Source: an uncultured Haliea sp. (GTDB lineage Bacteria > Pseudomonadota > Gammaproteobacteria > Pseudomonadales > Halieaceae). Taken from it: a stretch of 64,000 bases of DNA. Position 1 is the first letter of the stretch. Each line of letters opens with the position of its first letter. The notes beneath the pieces are model-generated. The model searched no databases. It saw nothing but the letters and a program-made list of their open reading frames with translations, and was not told the origin of the DNA. The stretch spans positions 123,208 through 187,207 of the forward strand of contig CAJXUQ010000003.1 of NCBI GenBank assembly GCA_913061145.1, written 5' to 3'. The translations under genes were made by a program, and so were the position numbers. Positions 6,771 to 27,293 of the stretch are shown here, piece by piece.

Positions 6771-8495
6771 CTAGAAAGGGAATACCCTGGGCAGCAGCCA
6801 GATCACGGTGGCCGAGTAGGCCAGCGACACCGGCAGGCCGCTGCGGCAATAGTCGCGCAGGGTGTAACCGCCGAGGTTCTGCACCATCAGGTTCGTGGTG
6901 TAACCGTACGGGGTCAGAAAGCTGGCACTGGCCCCGTACGCCACCGCCATCACAAACGGCATCGGGCTGACCCCGAGACTCTCCGCGATACCAAAAGCGA
7001 TGGGGAAACTCAGCGCAGCGGCCGCATTGTTCGTCATCACCTCGGTCAGCAGCAGGGCCCCGGCATACATGCAGGCCATCGCCAGCCAGGGGCCGAGAGC
7101 AATCAGTTCAGTCTGCAGGCTGCCGGCAAGCAGCGTCACCAGGCCCGAGTTGGTGAGCGCCTGGGACAGGGTAAGCGCCGAGGTGATAATCAGCCAGATC
7201 TCGAACGGGAACCGCCGACGCAACTCCGAGCCTCGCACCAGTCGCATACCCAGCATGCACACCAGCAGCAGCGACAGCCCCTTGATCAGCGGCAAGAGCT
7301 CCAGCGCAGACAGCAGCACCACTGCCGCCAGCAGCAGCGTCACGAACAGGTTCTGCAGCGGTGTGATTTTGGAGCCGCCGACCGCTTCGTCCACCACGAC
7401 GAAATTCTTGTCGAGGTTCTTGCGCTCGTTGAAATCCGGGCCGGTGGCGAGCATCAGAATATCGCCCGCGGCGATGCTGATGTTCCCCAGTTTTCCCGAC
7501 AGCCGTTTGCCACCGCGGCGCATCCCGACCACGGCGGCGTCGAACAAGGAGCGGAACCCCGACTCCTTGATGGTCTTCCCCTCAATAGCGGCATTGGGCA
7601 TGACGATCACTTCCACCATGTTCTCCCGCAGCAGCCCCTCCTCCACCGCAAACAGGTGCAGCCCATCGAAGCGATCGAGAACGTTGAGCTGGGTGATATC
7701 ACCCGAGAAAATCAGCTTGTCGCCCGCCTCAATAAACTCGGTCGGTGCCACCGGGGAAATCAGGTGCTCTGCCCGCACAATCTCCACCAGGAACAGCGCG
7801 TCGAGCTCACGCAGACCGTTCTCGGCAATGGTTCTGCCAATCAGGCTGGACTGGGTCGCCACTTCGGCTTCAATCACGTACTCCGCCACCTGTACCGGAT
7901 GGCTGCTGCTGCGGGGCAGCAAACGCGCTGAGAAGACCAGGGCGAGAAGACCGGCCAGAACCGCGGCGAAACCGACCGGCAGGAAGTCGAAAAACGCCAG
8001 CCCCGAGCCGGTGGCGTCCTCAAGAAAGCTGCTCACGATCAAATTGGTTGAGGTACCGATCAGCGTCATGGTACCCCCCAGAATGGCCGCATAGGACAGG
8101 GGTATCAGTAGCCGCGACGCGGGGTGATGACGATTGGCTCGCACTGTGGTGGTGAGCGTCGCGACCACCGCGGTGTTGTTGACGAAGGCGGAGAACAGCG
8201 CCGTGACGCCCCCCAGTCGCAGCAGGCTCAGCGTGTAGCTGGGTGAAATGAGGCGCCCCGAAAGGTGACTCAGCCAGGACAGCTTTTCCAGGCCGATGGA
8301 GACCAGCAACAGGAGAATCAAGGTCACCAGTCCCGTGTTGGTCGCTTTCTCCAGCATTTGCGAGGTCTCGACGAGACCGAGAAAATACGCGGCCAGCATC
8401 GCACCGACGAAAATCTTGGAGGCCGCCCAGGTGGAAAAGATCAAACCGGCCAGCAGCCCGAAAAACAGCAGTGCGATAAGAATCTGGTCAATCAT
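6771..8495 (-). CDS. SLC13 family permease with TrkA-C (RCK_C) domains
   Basis: FSAFVNNTAVV, LIPLSYAAILGGTMTLIGTSTNL, EVMTNNAAAAL and SFLTPYGYTTNLMV motifs, with a central soluble TrkA-C-like region. Confidence 0.88.
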   Translation of the reverse strand: MIDQILIALLFFGLLAGLIFSTWAASKIFVGAMLAAYFLGLVETSQMLEKATNTGLVTLILLLLVSIGLEKLSWLSHLSGRLISPSYTLSLLRLGGVTALFSAFVNNTAVVATLTTTVRANRHHPASRLLIPLSYAAILGGTMTLIGTSTNLIVSSFLEDATGSGLAFFDFLPVGFAAVLAGLLALVFSARLLPRSSSHPVQVAEYVIEAEVATQSSLIGRTIAENGLRELDALFLVEIVRAEHLISPVAPTEFIEAGDKLIFSGDITQLNVLDRFDGLHLFAVEEGLLRENMVEVIVMPNAAIEGKTIKESGFRSLFDAAVVGMRRGGKRLSGKLGNISIAAGDILMLATGPDFNERKNLDKNFVVVDEAVGGSKITPLQNLFVTLLLAAVVLLSALELLPLIKGLSLLLVCMLGMRLVRGSELRRRFPFEIWLIITSALTLSQALTNSGLVTLLAGSLQTELIALGPWLAMACMYAGALLLTEVMTNNAAAALSFPIAFGIAESLGVSPMPFVMAVAYGASASFLTPYGYTTNLMVQNLGGYTLRDYCRSGLPVSLAYSATVIWLLPRVFPF

Positions 8496-18992: not shown

Positions 18993-20528
18993 ATGAACCC
19001 ACCTGCCCACCCCGTGACAGTGACCCAGCGGCTGCTGGCCGGTATTGAACGCGTCGGCAACCGCCTGCCGGACCCGGCCGTACTGTTCATCGCCCTGCTG
19101 TTCATCACCTGGGCGCTGTCCTTGCTTTTTTCACGGTTCGAATACGACCTGATTGATCCGCGGAGTGGCGAGGCACTGCAGGTTGTCAACCAGTTCTCGC
19201 CGACCGCCATGACGCAGTTCCTTGCAGATATGGTGACAACCTTCGCCCACTTCCACCCGATCGGAGTGGTGCTGGTGGCGATGCTGGGTATTGGTGTTGC
19301 TGAACACACCGGGTTCATCAACTCCACCCTGCGCGCCATGTTAGGGGTGACGGCACGCTGGCTGCTGACCCCCATGGTGATTGTGGTTGGGATCGTCAGC
19401 CACACCGCCGCAGATGCCGGCTACGTACTGGTGATACCGCTGGGAGGCATCATCTTCCACGCGGCGGGCCGCCACCCGCTGGCGGGCATTGCTGCGGCTT
19501 TTGCCGGTGTTTCGGGGGGCTACTCCGCAAACTTTGTGCCCTCCTCGGTCGACCCGATGCTGCAGGGTATCTCCCAGTCCGCCGCACAGATTATTGACCC
19601 CTCTGTGGTCCTCAACCCGCTGAACAACTATTTCTTCACCTCCGCCTCCTCATTACTGATCGTGCTGGTCGGCTGGCTGGTCACGGATCGCTTTGTCGAA
19701 CCCCACCTGCGTCGCACGCCGATCGACGCGGATGTTGCTGCTGAAACCGGAATGCAGGCGCTCAGTACGACTGAGCGGCGCGCGCTGCGCTTCGCTCTGT
19801 GGAGCATGCTCGTGGCCATCATACTGCTGTGCCTGAGTGCAGTGCCCGAGGGTTCCGCCTGGCGTGGCCCGGGTGGCTCCCTGACCGAGAATGGTGCTCC
19901 GCTCATGGCGTCTATCGTGCCGTTGATCTTCCTGCTCTTCCTGCTGCCCGCCGTGGTTTACGGCATCAGCGCGGGCACGGTCACCAGCAGCCGGGACGTG
20001 ATCGAGGGCATGACCAAAACCATGCAAACCATGGGCTACTACCTGGTCATCATGTTCTTTATCGCCCAGTTCATTTACGCCTTTGGCGCCTCAAACCTGG
20101 GCATACTGCTGGCGGTGAAGGGTGCGCAGGGGCTGCAGGCACTGGGCCTGCCCGGCGCGCTCACCATTTCCGGCATTGTCCTGCTCACAGGCTTTCTCAA
20201 CCTGTTCGTGGGTTCGGCATCGGCCAAATGGGCGCTGCTCGCCCCCATCCTGGTACCCATGCTGATGAAACTCGGTGCGTCACCGGATCTGACTCAGGCG
20301 GCGTACCGTATCGGCGACTCCACCACCAATATCATCACACCGCTGATGCCCTACTTTCCGCTGGTGGTGGTCTATTGCCAGCGCTACGTTCGCAGCGCCG
20401 GGATCGGTACGGTCACCGCGCTGATGCTGCCCTACTCGGTGAGTTTCATCATTTTGTGGACGCTGTTTCTGCTCGGCTACTGGGCTCTGGGCCTACCGCT
20501 GGGCCTGCAGTCCAGTTATAGCTACTGA
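18993..20528 (+). CDS. abgT: AbgT family transporter
   Basis: IERVGNRLPDP, GRHPLAGIAAAFAGVSGGYSAN, SASAKWA and YRIGDSTTNIITP motifs. Confidence 0.9.
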   Translation: MNPPAHPVTVTQRLLAGIERVGNRLPDPAVLFIALLFITWALSLLFSRFEYDLIDPRSGEALQVVNQFSPTAMTQFLADMVTTFAHFHPIGVVLVAMLGIGVAEHTGFINSTLRAMLGVTARWLLTPMVIVVGIVSHTAADAGYVLVIPLGGIIFHAAGRHPLAGIAAAFAGVSGGYSANFVPSSVDPMLQGISQSAAQIIDPSVVLNPLNNYFFTSASSLLIVLVGWLVTDRFVEPHLRRTPIDADVAAETGMQALSTTERRALRFALWSMLVAIILLCLSAVPEGSAWRGPGGSLTENGAPLMASIVPLIFLLFLLPAVVYGISAGTVTSSRDVIEGMTKTMQTMGYYLVIMFFIAQFIYAFGASNLGILLAVKGAQGLQALGLPGALTISGIVLLTGFLNLFVGSASAKWALLAPILVPMLMKLGASPDLTQAAYRIGDSTTNIITPLMPYFPLVVVYCQRYVRSAGIGTVTALMLPYSVSFIILWTLFLLGYWALGLPLGLQSSYSY

Positions 20529-22321
20529 GAAGCCCCGGGCAGGGGTTGCTCCTGCTGAGCGGCCCACAGTGCCGCGTAGCGGCCACCGGAAGCCAATAAT
20601 TCGCGGTGGCCACCCTGTTCGACGATCCGGCCCTGATCCAGCACCAGAATACGGTCTGCGTCGACAACGGTGGACAGGCGGTGAGCAATCACCAGGCTGG
20701 TGTGGTTCAGAGCAATCTCCCGCAGCGCCTTCAGAATCGCCTGCTCCGAGCGGCTGTCCAGGCTGGAGGTGGCCTCGTCAAACACCAGGATGGGCGGACG
20801 CTTGAGGATGGTGCGGGCAATGGAGACACGCTGCTTCTCCCCCCCGGAAAGCTTGAGTCCGCGCTCGCCCACCCGGGTCTGCCAACCATCGGGCAGCTGG
20901 GCAAGGAACTCGTCCAGGTGGGCCATGCTGGCGGCCTCGGCCACCTCGGCGTCCGGGGCACCAGGCTTGCCGTATCGCAGGTTCTCCAGCAGGGTGTCAT
21001 TGAACAGCACGGTGTCCTGGGGCACGATACCAATCGCCCTGCGCAGCGATTCGCGGGTGACCTCTGCGATGTCCTGCCCGTCAATGAGTATCCGCCCCGC
21101 ACTGGGGTCGTAAAAACGAAACAGCAGCTTGACCAGTGTAGACTTGCCAGCGCCACTGGCTCCCACCACCGCCACTTTCTTGCCTGGCGGCACCTCGAAA
21201 CTGACCCGGTCGAGAATGCTGCGCCCGGCCGGGTAACGAAAGCTCACCTGCTCAAAACGGATACCGCCGCCGGCGACGCCCAGGGCCGGCGCTCCGGGCC
21301 GGTCGGCGAGCTCCGGGCGTACATCCAGCAGGCCAAACAGACGCTCGATATTGGCCATTGCCCCTTTCATTTCGCGGTAGACAAAACCGAGAAAACCGAG
21401 TGGCAGAAACAGCTGGATCATGTACTGACTGATCAGCACGAAGTCACCGAGCGTAAGCTGCCCCGTCCGCACCTGCAACACCGCGAGGCCGATGATGGCC
21501 GTTTGTGCCAGCGCAATGATCAGCGCCTGGCCGCCGTTGAGCCCGAACAGAGACAGGCGGTTGCGCCGTCGCGCCTGCTCCCAACGCGCCAGATCTTCGT
21601 CGTAGCGCTGCGCCTCGTAGGCTTCATTGCCAAAATACTTGACGGTTTCAAAATTGAGCAGACTGTCCACGGCGCGGGTGTTGGAGGCCGAATCGGCCTC
21701 GTTCATTTCCCGCACAAAGCGTGTGCGCCACTCCGTCGCGCCGAAGGAAAACCAGCCATAGGCGACGACGGAAACCAGGGTCACCAGCGCATAACTCAGC
21801 CCGTAACTGAACAGGAAAACCGAAACCACCACGGCGATCTCGAACAGTGTGGGCACAATATTGAAGACCATGAAACGCAGCAGAAAACTCACCCCGCTGG
21901 TGCCCCGCTCGATGTCGCGGGCCAGGCCACCGGTGCGCCGCTCCAGATGAAAACCGAGGTCCAGCTGATGTACATGGCGAAACACCGTCAGCCCAAGGGA
22001 ACGCATGGCGCGCTCGGTGACGCGACCGAACAGGGTGTCACGTAACTCGGCAAACAGTACGCTGGACAGGCGCGCCACGCCGTAGGCGGCGATCAACCCC
22101 AGCGCCACCGACCCCGCGAGTTGCGCACCCGACTCCAGGTTCAAGCCATCCACGAGATGCTTCATGATGAAGGGAATGACGAGTATCGCGCCCTTGGCGA
22201 GCAACAGACAGGCCATCGCCAGGGCGATACGTCGACGATGATCGCGCAGGTAGGGCCAGAGACGGGGCAGAACCGACCAGTCGAGTACCTGCCCAGGCTC
22301 GGCGTCAGTGCGGGGTCGCAT
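20522..22321 (-). CDS. Atm1/ABCB6-like ABC exporter (fused TMD-NBD)
   Basis: FHLERRTGGLARDIERG, DSLLNFETVKYF, Walker A GASGAGKST, LSGGEKQR and DEATSSLD. Confidence 0.9.
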   Translation of the reverse strand: MRPRTDAEPGQVLDWSVLPRLWPYLRDHRRRIALAMACLLLAKGAILVIPFIMKHLVDGLNLESGAQLAGSVALGLIAAYGVARLSSVLFAELRDTLFGRVTERAMRSLGLTVFRHVHQLDLGFHLERRTGGLARDIERGTSGVSFLLRFMVFNIVPTLFEIAVVVSVFLFSYGLSYALVTLVSVVAYGWFSFGATEWRTRFVREMNEADSASNTRAVDSLLNFETVKYFGNEAYEAQRYDEDLARWEQARRRNRLSLFGLNGGQALIIALAQTAIIGLAVLQVRTGQLTLGDFVLISQYMIQLFLPLGFLGFVYREMKGAMANIERLFGLLDVRPELADRPGAPALGVAGGGIRFEQVSFRYPAGRSILDRVSFEVPPGKKVAVVGASGAGKSTLVKLLFRFYDPSAGRILIDGQDIAEVTRESLRRAIGIVPQDTVLFNDTLLENLRYGKPGAPDAEVAEAASMAHLDEFLAQLPDGWQTRVGERGLKLSGGEKQRVSIARTILKRPPILVFDEATSSLDSRSEQAILKALREIALNHTSLVIAHRLSTVVDADRILVLDQGRIVEQGGHRELLASGGRYAALWAAQQEQPLPGASQ

Positions 22322-24138: not shown

Positions 24139-24154
24139 CTGTATATATACTCAG
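24139..24154. promoter_or_regulatory. LexA SOS box upstream of recA
   Basis: CTGTATATATACTCAG matches CTG-N10-CAG with an AT-alternating core and lies 70 nt upstream of the recA ATG. Confidence 0.92.
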
Positions 24155-24243: not shown

Positions 24244-25281
24244 TCACGGTGACACGCGGGCCTGCGGGACCGCGTAGAACAGGCAATCACTGCGGGCGAT
24301 GACGACATTCGTGGTGATCATGAACAGTGTTGTTGCGGTCGCCGGGTAAAGGCGCCCTCCGACGCAGCGCAGCAGACTGGAAAGCACACAGCGCCCCCCC
24401 GCGTCCTGTGCCCAGAACAGGCTACGCAGGTCTCCGCGTATCCAGCCCAGCGGTTCATCCGGACCTACCGTGGCGAAATTGAAATGCTCCATATCCTGCC
24501 GCAGGGTGACGTCGGCCGTGCTGTCCGGCACCTCGCCGTAGGCCAGTGTCACGCCGGGATTGAGATGCAGGCGCACCGGATCCTGCAGGACCTCCAGCGC
24601 CCAGACCGGCTCATCCCCCGCCAGCACGCGATCACGGTCAAAGTAGCGACAAAGGCCCTCCCAGGCCAGCTCGTGGGCGCGCTCGTCAAGCCGCCCCCCC
24701 ACTTCAACCGTGACCGTGGGGTAACTGTGTTCGCTGATTTCCATCAAGGCACCGAGGTTCAACCGGGTCACGATCATGCGTTCGGTAAACAGTGAGACCA
24801 GCGCGTCATGCTCACGGTCGAGGTGTGTGCAGACCCCAAAGGCCGGCCCACTGCCGGAGGTATTGTGCAGATCGACGACCGCTTCCGGCTGGTGCACGCG
24901 CAGGATCTGCAGGATTTCCTCAGCGAGGATGCCCTCGGCGCCCTCAAAAGGCGGTTTGAAGCAGCGGTTCAGGTCGCGCACGCCGGGCAGCATGCGATGA
25001 CTGAACAGCGGCGGACGCAGTGCCGCCGCCACGGAACCGATGATGCATACGCAGTTGACGGCGGGCTGGCGACCCGACTTGATCCAGCGGAACAGGGCCA
25101 TCAGGCCGGACGGCTCGTTGCCATGCAGCAGTGTGACCAGCGCTCGCGTGCGACGGGTATCCCTGCCGTCCAGGAAGAGACTCGCGGGACCGCCGAGTAC
25201 CTGCAGGAAATCCTCAACGGTGTCGCCGATTTCCGTCGCCAGCGGATTACGCAGAAAGCGCACCCGCCTCACTGCGGCCAC
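24244..25281 (-). CDS. Succinylglutamate desuccinylase/aspartoacylase (AstE/AspA, M14-like) family protein
   Basis: Zn and catalytic motifs HGNE, DLNRCF, DLHNT and TVEVG. The GTG start overlaps the upstream stop by 13 nt. Confidence 0.82.
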
Positions 25282-26738
25282 TCCGCTACCGGTTCATTGG
25301 TCTCACTGCGCAACCGGTAAGCCTCGAGCATGTCGCTCAACTGCGCAGGATCCGGGCGTGTTCCGGACTGCGGCTGCCCGAGCTGCGCCAGCTGCCAGCG
25401 CGCCCCCGTTTGCCCATTGGCCAGCCGCCGCTCGATGATGCCCAGATAGCGGTCGGACTCTGTGCCGGCGATACCGATGGCATCCAGCCCACGGCGGGCC
25501 ACCGGCAGCATGTCCGCGACCAGACTGGCTGCGGATTGCTCCTCGCATACCGTCTGCTGCGGACGCGGCCAGACCAGCCGGGCTGCCAGGCCCTCCTGCG
25601 CCGCACGGTAAAAGTTATGTTCAGCAATTGAAAACGGTAACGCCGGGAGCCAACGCTGCAGGCCCGGCTGCAGGCCCTCCGCCATACCGATGAGGAATGC
25701 CGCGTTGGCTACCATGTCCGCAGCGGTGGGCCCCGCCGGCAGTGCGCGCATCTCGACGCGCAGGTGACCGCCCGCGGCCGCGTCGTAGACCGGGCGATTC
25801 CACAGCCACACCGTGCTTTGATGCAGCTGTAACTCGCGCAGTTCCAGACTGGCAGGATCACCCGCCTCCTCGGCGCAAACCGGCAACAGGGGCTGGTAGA
25901 GACGAACCGCCTCGGCAAACAGCTCCAGCGCATCGCGGCGCACCCAGCCTTGGCCAAAGTTCACCCGGGCAGGCTCTTTCCAGGCGTAGCGGTCGGGTAG
26001 ACGCGTGTCGATGGACTGCTTGAACAGCGGGATACGCGTCTCCTGCCACAGGCTGTGGCCGAACAGGGTGGGGGAATTGCCCGCCACCGCCAGCGCCAGC
26101 GGGGTGACCGCCTGGATCGCGTTGAACACATCCGCAAAGCGCTCCGGCGCCACCCGGTAGTGAACCTGGAACGAGGTATTGGCGCCCTCCAGGGTGATAT
26201 CGTCCATGGCCAGCTGCAGCGGATGCTGCCCGTTGATATTGATGGTGAAGTGGCGCCCACGGCGGGCAATCAGTTGCTCCACCAGCGCCGCAAAGCGCCG
26301 TTTTGGCGTCATGCAGGCGGGCCCGAAGTCATCGCGCTGCAGCGTGGGCAGAATGCCGATGGGCACCACCAGCGCATCCCGCTGTGCCGCCAGCTGGCGC
26401 AGCGTTCCCAGCTTGCGGCAGATTTCCTCCTCCAGTGAGAGAAAAGGGCTGTCCGCCACTGCGACCGGGCTCAGGTTGTACTCGAGGTTGTAGCGATTGA
26501 GTTCCAGCGTCAGCTGCTCGTCGCCCGCCGCGGCTTGCAGCTCCTCATTGAGGTGTGCGGGCCTGCCCGCACCATCCACCACGTACAGCTCCAGTTCAGC
26601 GCCCAGTGACGCCGGACCCTCGCCGAAGCCGGGCACCGCCAGCAGTGCCTCCAGACGCTGCAGGTTCGCCTCGAGCCGCTGGCTGAAGCGCTGGTAGTCG
26701 GCCGTGGAAAACTGCACGGTGTGGATATCGGTGCCCAT
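25269..26738 (-). CDS. Glutamate-cysteine ligase family 2 (GCS2) / gamma-glutamyl ligase
   Basis: SLGAELE, LELNRYNLEYN, GANTSFQVH, ETRIPLF, NRPVYD and RVEMRALPAGPT motifs. Start refined to ATG 26738. Confidence 0.82.
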   Translation of the reverse strand: MGTDIHTVQFSTADYQRFSQRLEANLQRLEALLAVPGFGEGPASLGAELELYVVDGAGRPAHLNEELQAAAGDEQLTLELNRYNLEYNLSPVAVADSPFLSLEEEICRKLGTLRQLAAQRDALVVPIGILPTLQRDDFGPACMTPKRRFAALVEQLIARRGRHFTININGQHPLQLAMDDITLEGANTSFQVHYRVAPERFADVFNAIQAVTPLALAVAGNSPTLFGHSLWQETRIPLFKQSIDTRLPDRYAWKEPARVNFGQGWVRRDALELFAEAVRLYQPLLPVCAEEAGDPASLELRELQLHQSTVWLWNRPVYDAAAGGHLRVEMRALPAGPTAADMVANAAFLIGMAEGLQPGLQRWLPALPFSIAEHNFYRAAQEGLAARLVWPRPQQTVCEEQSAASLVADMLPVARRGLDAIGIAGTESDRYLGIIERRLANGQTGARWQLAQLGQPQSGTRPDPAQLSDMLEAYRLRSETNEPVAEWPQ

Positions 26739-26822
26739 GTCAGCGTTATAGCACAGAAGCCGGTGGAGGATAGTCCGGGCATGACGTAAAATCGGGCTTC
26801 CCCAATTGCCACTGGTTGTCCC

Positions 26823-27293
26823 ATGTCCACCCCCGTCACACCCGACCGCGCCCTGCTGGAACGCTGGCTGAACGCCAGCGCCGTACAGAATTACCTGTGC
26901 GAGCACTGCGACAACCTGCACATCAGCGAAATCAGGTCACAGGAGGGGGTGCTGGACAGCCGCCTGATTCCCGAGAGCTTTGGCCTGCTGTTCACCACAG
27001 AGCTGGAAATCCGCCCCATGGCCCTGCTTGCCCTGTCCGCCGACCTGGGGCGGTTGAACATGGAGTACCCGGTGCTGAAGCTGTTCCTCGACGTGGTGGA
27101 CGACGCGACGCCGCAGCTGGTGGCCGCCGCCATTTTCCCCGGCAATGCCGGCATTACCGAGAGCCAGTTCAATCACTTCGTTGCCATGACCATGCAGGCC
27201 ATGCTGCAGCTGGCGGAGGAATGCCTGCGGCTCGATTACCTCTTCTCCGAGGATGGCTCCACACGTCAGCGGCCACGCTCCGTGGTGCATTGA
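26823..27293 (+). CDS. ybjN: YbjN domain protein
   Basis: The N-terminus LLERWL...YLCEHCDNLHI...EGVLDSRL resembles the CxxCxxLH start of YbjN-type proteins as I recall it. Confidence 0.7.
   Translation: MSTPVTPDRALLERWLNASAVQNYLCEHCDNLHISEIRSQEGVLDSRLIPESFGLLFTTELEIRPMALLALSADLGRLNMEYPVLKLFLDVVDDATPQLVAAAIFPGNAGITESQFNHFVAMTMQAMLQLAEECLRLDYLFSEDGSTRQRPRSVVH

Follow-up and report, generated by a model that had tools for sequence, protein, structure and literature searches.

A GCS2-like ligase linked to an AstE/AspA-family zinc hydrolase across bacterial phyla: a candidate two-enzyme module for making and breaking a small amide

Introduction

Among described enzymes that make and break amides, the glutathionylspermidine synthetase/amidase Gss is built from an ATP-grasp-like and a CHAP part, whilst PuuA is of the GS type and PuuD belongs to the C26 family. 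Published comparative genomics has reportedly also proposed tagging-like roles for ligase–peptidase neighbourhoods. Here we describe a two-gene locus in a 64,000-nucleotide stretch of DNA (the window) from an uncultured Haliea sp., a Halieaceae gammaproteobacterium whose closest relatives are an uncultured Halieaceae metagenome-assembled genome (MAG; 96% identity) and Haliea and Kineobactrum (75%). Both genes are intact and lie on the minus strand. The first encodes a ligase (25269..26738; 489 amino acids from the ATG at 26738, within a longest open reading frame (ORF) of 550 amino acids at 25269-26921) and the second, downstream, an AstE/AspA-family zinc amidohydrolase (24244..25272; 342 amino acids from a GTG at 25272, or 345 if translation starts at the GTG at 25281). 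Profile and model comparisons place both proteins in known superfamilies, but neither passes any equivalog test.

We give about an even chance to the reading that the two proteins form a self-contained cytoplasmic module that makes and breaks a small N-acyl-amino-acid or gamma-glutamyl amide. Literature searches on the ligase–hydrolase pair returned no relevant publication; a paper on a thiohistidine dipeptide names a YbdK-like ligase in an unrelated context. What is new here is the quantified co-occurrence of the two genes, the near-universal presence of a separate glutamate-cysteine ligase (GCL) in ligase-bearing genomes, the existence of lineages with the ligase only and a neighbouring C26 gene in one such lineage.

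Co-occurrence, synteny and fusion of the two genes

The distribution of the pair was determined in a sample of 400 gammaproteobacterial genomes, with the hydrolase called by family profile (nearly all matches at E < 1e-100). The ligase is present in 140 of these genomes (about a third) and the hydrolase in 137; 131 encode both proteins, nine the ligase alone, six the hydrolase alone and 254 neither, and the pattern of co-occurrence covers more than 100 genera. A Fisher p-value for this association exaggerates its significance, given the shared ancestry of related genomes. The tallies count four unpublished genomes (G039, G141, G296 and G308), the first of which also contributes one of the 30 loci described below; leaving all four out shifts the counts by no more than four, and no conclusion depends on them.

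Gene order is conserved as well. The hydrolase gene lies immediately 3' of the ligase gene, on the same strand, at 22 of 30 loci, at 15 loci of a second set of 20 (with two more within 4 kb) and at 60 of 80 named loci drawn from at least six phyla. The last set takes in Nitrospirales, Myxococcota, Acidobacteria, an alphaproteobacterial MAG, Zoogloeaceae, Alteromonas, Glaciecola, Grimontia, Enterovibrio, Vibrionaceae and Coxiellaceae. An earlier note on this DNA, made from the window's sequence alone, had let its case stand or fall with the company the two genes keep in other genomes, and in these genomes they both co-occur and are syntenic.

In some cases the two proteins are joined in a single ORF: ligase–hydrolase fusions of 876 and 830 amino acids are encoded in two gammaproteobacterial genomes, the family has an 827 amino acid fused representative, and a 965 amino acid protein carries CBS domains between ligase and hydrolase. 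These fusions strengthen the functional link between the two activities. Co-occurrence, synteny and fusion together are the reason for regarding the linkage, as judged from genome comparison, as something beyond chance adjacency.

Clustering of the neighbouring ORFs, in 20 and then in 80 loci, identified no further conserved neighbour. Every candidate considered (recA, amgK-murU, SelB, a lactate permease and Usp) proved either lineage-restricted or weak. In four phyla, Usp genes occur no more than a few kb from the ligase gene (L082, 6323-6808; L109, 5539-6459; L122, 5040-5921; L124, 3599-4096); their enrichment is slight and may be due to chance.

The ligase

The ligase matches the Pfam GCS2 family (PF04107) at 32.6 bits against a cut-off of 21, all 27 aligned homologues match the family too, and its AlphaFold model (pLDDT 91) retrieves, in Foldseek searches and with a probability of 1.00, yeast GCL (3ig5, TMq 0.74), YbdK (1r8g, TMt 0.82) and plant GCL (2gwc). 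The E. coli GCL is also matched, and identity to any solved GCL is just 13-16%. Comparison of the ligase family with plant-type GCL by hhalign gives a probability of 95.7%. Searches of PDB sequences found no match, whether with the single sequence or with the family profile, and for this reason we place the ligase, on sequence grounds, in a deep and separate branch of the GCL superfamily. A search of the ESM Atlas returned only the ligase's own family, which comprises approximately 1,210 clusters at 50% identity (E <= 1e-30). The protein falls far below every NCBIfam equivalog cut-off: the YbdK-type model NF010043 scores 38.9 bits against a cut-off of 409 and covers just residues 389-477 of the 550 amino acid ORF, and the EgtA model gives no match. 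Dop, of the PafA/Dop pair, is among the weak structural matches of the model.

Sixty-six alignment columns are invariant among 27 ligases that are 35-75% identical to that of the window, and include E48, E50, E86, N88, H193, E233, R235, R315, R327, E329 and R331. These acidic, histidine and arginine residues are consistent with a predicted Mg-ATP-dependent acyl-phosphate chemistry. Ligase–CBS forms of about 630-650 amino acids are common in the family, and CBS pairs typically sense adenosyl ligands. The position of such pairs, fused to one of the two enzymatic domains or lying between them, suggests reciprocal regulation of synthesis and breakdown. Neither the ligase nor the hydrolase of the window has a CBS or other sensor domain.

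Relationship to GshA

Public records label the ligase as a glutamate--cysteine ligase. The genome from which the window comes encodes a canonical gshA (528 bits, on contig 9) and a gshB (on contig 5), and the window's ligase gene is its sole GCS2-type gene. Among the 140 ligase-bearing genomes of the sample, 64 have an E. coli-type gshA and 66 a ferrooxidans-type GshA (PF08886), which is often encoded beside gshB; five have neither of these types but a strong plant-type GCS2 match, and the remaining five have none of the three GCL types, three of these being only 55-82% complete. A dedicated, separate GCL is thus present in 135 of the 140. Because this holds for so many carriers, this genome included, the ligase is not the housekeeping GshA that feeds gshB, an outcome in favour of the earlier note, and the genomic evidence contradicts the database label. 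Presence of the ligase is also independent of the E. coli-type gshA, which is found in 46% of ligase-bearing and 39% of ligase-free genomes.

One explanation considered for genomes without an E. coli-type gshA, that a plant-type GCS2 protein supplies the missing GCL, was rejected, as PF08886 fills the gap. In the 400 genomes, gshB is found in 379 and an E. coli-type gshA in just 165, whilst the supposedly rare ferrooxidans-type GshA was recovered from 66 of the 76 genomes tested for it, its gene often adjoining gshB. This type appears to be a major form of GCL in uncultured Gammaproteobacteria.

The hydrolase

The hydrolase matches the Pfam family AstE_AspA_cat (PF24827) at 36.9 bits (cut-off 25), so that both of the family assignments made in the earlier note are borne out by profiles above their cut-offs. 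Its looser description of the hydrolase as M14-type needs correcting, however: the protein belongs to the AstE/AspA family and matches none of the M14 peptidase profiles of Pfam or NCBIfam. Foldseek searches with the structural model (pLDDT 93) return AstE, DoeB/EutE, aspartoacylase, aminoacylase-3 and the cyanophycin dipeptidase CphZ at similar significance (E about 1e-10 to 1e-11), with identity to solved family members of 12-17%; there is also a distant structural likeness to Csd4 and MpaA. At the level of equivalogs, the NCBIfam aspartoacylase model scores 21.4 bits against a cut-off of 180 and the AstE models give no match. Succinylglutamate desuccinylase proper (AstE) was accordingly rejected as an identity for the protein, the AstE equivalog being unmatched and ast genes not being found nearby.

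Alignment of 23 hydrolases from distant lineages, down to 22% identity, shows H53-G-N-E56, R96, D103-x-N105-R106, D137-L-H139 and E193 to be invariant, and the HGNE/NR/DLH/E motifs that had been read from the window are therefore intact across the family. All parts of the expected active site are present: the His-Glu-His zinc ligands (H53, E56 and H139), the catalytic glutamate (E193) and the clamp formed by R96 with N105-R106. Two further invariant stretches, N268-F269 and D332-C333-L334, are specific to this family. The bonds cleaved by the solved relatives are all those of N-acyl-alpha-amino acids or isopeptide dipeptides (succinyl-Glu, acetyl-Asp, acetyl-DABA, beta-Asp-Arg). A gamma-Glu-amino acid would fit both enzymes, because a GCL-type ligase gives an omega-amide of glutamate and an AstE/AspA hydrolase with this clamp needs an N-acyl-alpha-amino acid.

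Lineages with the ligase only

The hydrolase is not found in every lineage that has the ligase. All ten of the Myxococcota, Actinomycetota and Gemmatimonadota genomes tested have the ligase without the hydrolase, and Myxococcus, Corallococcus and three Actinomycetota MAGs are amongst the examples. The ligase product should therefore be useful by itself, with the hydrolase apparently serving to turn it over and depending on its presence. At four myxobacterial loci (L117, L120, L123 and L127, from Myxococcus, Pyxidicoccus and Corallococcus) the partnerless ligase gene is located between a divergent radical-SAM gene and a conserved gene for a protein of about 500-515 amino acids, which has no Pfam match.

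Five ligase-bearing Gemmatimonadota genomes were searched with the hydrolase profile and no AstE-like partner was found anywhere in them. In three of the five, a Peptidase_C26 gene (gamma-glutamyl hydrolase/PuuD family) lies directly upstream of the ligase gene on the same strand. Judging by its position and family, this gene looks like a replacement of the AstE-like partner by an unrelated gamma-glutamyl amidase, and it provides a hint that the ligase product is a gamma-glutamyl amide. In a sample of 71 genomes of the same class, the other 17 ligase-bearing genomes carry a CBS-fused ligase, and at six of their 18 loci a divergent AstE-like gene is weakly matched downstream, within the 1.5-kb flank.

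Proposed function and alternatives

How might the two enzymes work together? The ligase would activate a carboxylate with ATP as an acyl phosphate, in the manner of GCLs, the carboxylate most likely being the gamma-carboxyl of glutamate, and would pass the acyl group to an amino-acid-like acceptor, at the amino group of the latter. The zinc hydrolase, translationally coupled to the ligase, would cleave the resulting N-acyl-amino-acid bond, and both enzymes together would determine how much of a small amide of the gamma-glutamyl-dipeptide type is present at steady state. We infer the acyl donor, the class of acceptor and the action of both enzymes on the same bond, and hence the reversible glutamylation that the earlier note had suggested. 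The best-supported part of the coupled write/erase system put forward there is a ligase and an amidase that work on a gamma-glutamyl-type amide; a protein target is judged the least likely, since both folds belong to families of small-molecule enzymes. More tentatively, and with the balance of probability against it, the pair may represent a widespread, regulated synthetase/amidase cycle that sets the level of a new gamma-glutamyl metabolite (for example a stress, redox or osmotic effector) in at least six phyla, with CBS domains as the sensor in many relatives and, possibly, the invariant Cys333 in the protein described here.

Several points weigh against the idea that the two enzymes make and break one amide. 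The C26 clue to the nature of the product is limited to a single lineage. The ligase-only lineages show that the product is valuable without an AstE-like hydrolase. Two opposing enzymes that are co-expressed and act on one bond waste ATP unless they are regulated, and the window's version is without a CBS or sensor domain to do so. The hydrolase could, moreover, act on another bond, in a precursor or a later intermediate. This last point leads to the main rival explanation, that the two enzymes catalyse consecutive steps on different bonds rather than opposing reactions, which we consider rather unlikely. It can be framed as salvage, in which the hydrolase would act first, on an N-acylated precursor, and the amine or acid set free would then be used by the ligase, or as transient protective gamma-glutamylation, of the kind seen in PuuA/PuuD putrescine catabolism and with gamma-glutamylanilide, with the intermediate enzymes encoded elsewhere. 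Consecutive steps are what fusion proteins usually contain, a C26 neighbour of the PuuD type would be the last step of just such a pathway, and the problem of a futile cycle does not arise. Against this, no oxidase, dehydrogenase or transporter gene is conserved beside the pair in about 130 loci, and fusion of opposing activities has a precedent in the bifunctional glutathionylspermidine synthetase/amidase.

Three further explanations rank below this one. That the ligase is a second gamma-glutamylcysteine ligase (a GshA isozyme), with the hydrolase unrelated or accessory, would agree with its place in the GCL superfamily, its public name and the near-universal presence of gshB (379/400), but the canonical gshA of this genome, the separate GCL in 135 of 140 carriers and the scores against the YbdK-type and EgtA models all speak against it, as does the fact that the ligase follows the hydrolase rather than any gshA type; we consider it improbable. 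Slightly more doubtful again is a role in protein or peptide tagging, in which the ligase would glutamylate a side chain or terminus and the hydrolase would remove the tag (compare PafA/Dop and RimK). The GS/GCL fold is also that of PafA and Dop, and the ligase model weakly matches Dop, but no gene for a target or small protein is conserved nearby, the closest structural relatives of both enzymes handle small molecules, and the hydrolase retains the clamp for a free alpha-carboxylate. The least probable of the explanations is that the pair cuts and rejoins a bond of the gamma-D-Glu-diaminopimelate type in the recycling of peptidoglycan peptides. At five to seven of the 20 gammaproteobacterial loci that were sampled, the pair comes after amgK-murU and start and stop codons overlap, and the hydrolase profile weakly matches the murein peptide amidase MpaA (E 0.2). 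This match is much weaker than those to AstE and AspA, however, the amgK-murU genes of this genome are on a different contig, and their linkage to the pair is restricted to one group of related lineages. An amgK-murU-ligase-hydrolase arrangement beside lptD-surA is seen at L045 (8005-11148), L051 (7345-10458), L037 and L044, in the sulfur oxidisers Thiogranum, Sulfuriflexus, Halofilum and Thiohalophilus.

Gene starts, overlap and promoter

The junction of the two genes (25269..25281, minus strand) contains the ligase stop codon (TGA, 25269-25271), two candidate hydrolase starts (GTG 25272 and GTG 25281) and a GGAG at 25281-25284. The overlap of 13 nt given in the earlier note is correct for the longest ORFs, which run from GTG 25281 and to TGA 25269-25271. 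On our reading of the sequence a GTGA overlap of 4 nt is likelier, because the in-frame GTG 25272 forms such a junction with the ligase stop, is preceded by the GGAG at a distance of 8 nt and lies where the closest hydrolase homologues start. At most homologous loci the ligase and hydrolase genes likewise overlap or nearly abut.

Upstream of the ligase, an extended -10-like element (TGcTATAAC, 26745..26753, minus strand) ends 6 nt before the ATG, with no Shine-Dalgarno sequence between the two. The same element is found at equal spacing in the closest Halieaceae loci (L059-L061 and L065, near 6985-7000). A generic promoter scan of this region that requires both hexamers gave no match. A leaderless ligase transcript starting from the TGcTATAAC element is possible. 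Loci of the Halioglobus type (L066, L067, L073 and L087) have a conserved element, ACGATCnAnATCAAT, some 35-45 nt before the ATG of the ligase; it is absent from the window's own lineage and may be the site of a regulator.

Genomic surroundings

On the downstream side, the pair is followed by recA, recX and genes for an ABC exporter and an AbgT transporter; on the upstream side are a YbjN-like gene (26823-27293), which is divergent from the ligase gene, and then mutS, also divergent from the pair. The recA gene starts at ATG 24067, leaving a spacer of 177 nt. Within this spacer, approximately 70 nt upstream of recA, is an SOS/LexA box, CTGAGTATATATACAG (CTG-N10-CAG; 24139-24154, minus strand), and recA therefore has its own promoter. 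Co-regulation of the pair with recA is ruled out by the box and the spacer. The recA ORF of 429 amino acids, which runs into the end of the hydrolase gene, is an artefact of an in-frame ATG further upstream, and its long 5' extension is spurious. Adjacency of the pair to recA is a Halieaceae trait.

No gshB, egt or ast genes are found near the pair, which upholds the description of a two-gene unit free of such neighbours, and from their layout ligase and hydrolase form a self-standing unit. The AbgT-family transporter gene (plus strand) and the gene for the exporter, which is MsbA-like (minus strand), converge just downstream of recX (18993-22321) and show no conservation with the pair. PADLOC defence-system models gave no match.

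Comparison with known systems

The ligase shares its fold with the YbdK/GCS2 carboxylate-amine ligases and with the plant-, yeast- and E. coli-type GCLs (1r8g, 2gwc, 3ig5 and 1v4g; TM 0.6-0.8), but it differs in occurring alongside a dedicated GCL in almost all carriers and in its tie to a hydrolase. The hydrolase shares with succinylglutamate desuccinylase, aspartoacylase, aminoacylase-3, DoeB/EutE and CphZ the two-domain fold, the His-Glu-His zinc site, the catalytic glutamate and the clamp of arginine with Asn-Arg, but it is found without the ast, ectoine or cyanophycin context of those relatives.

Identification of the product would correct a widespread misannotation and could reveal a new and common bacterial metabolite. 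By analogy, the closest parallels in logic would be Gss, PuuA/PuuD and PafA/Dop, in each of which an ATP-dependent amide ligase is coupled or fused to a hydrolase of a gamma-glutamyl-type or related amide. The pair is not homologous to Gss and is just distantly related to PuuA/PuuD and PafA/Dop; it could add to glutathionylspermidine synthetase/amidase a second natural example of an amide synthetase and amidase that are coupled and sometimes fused.

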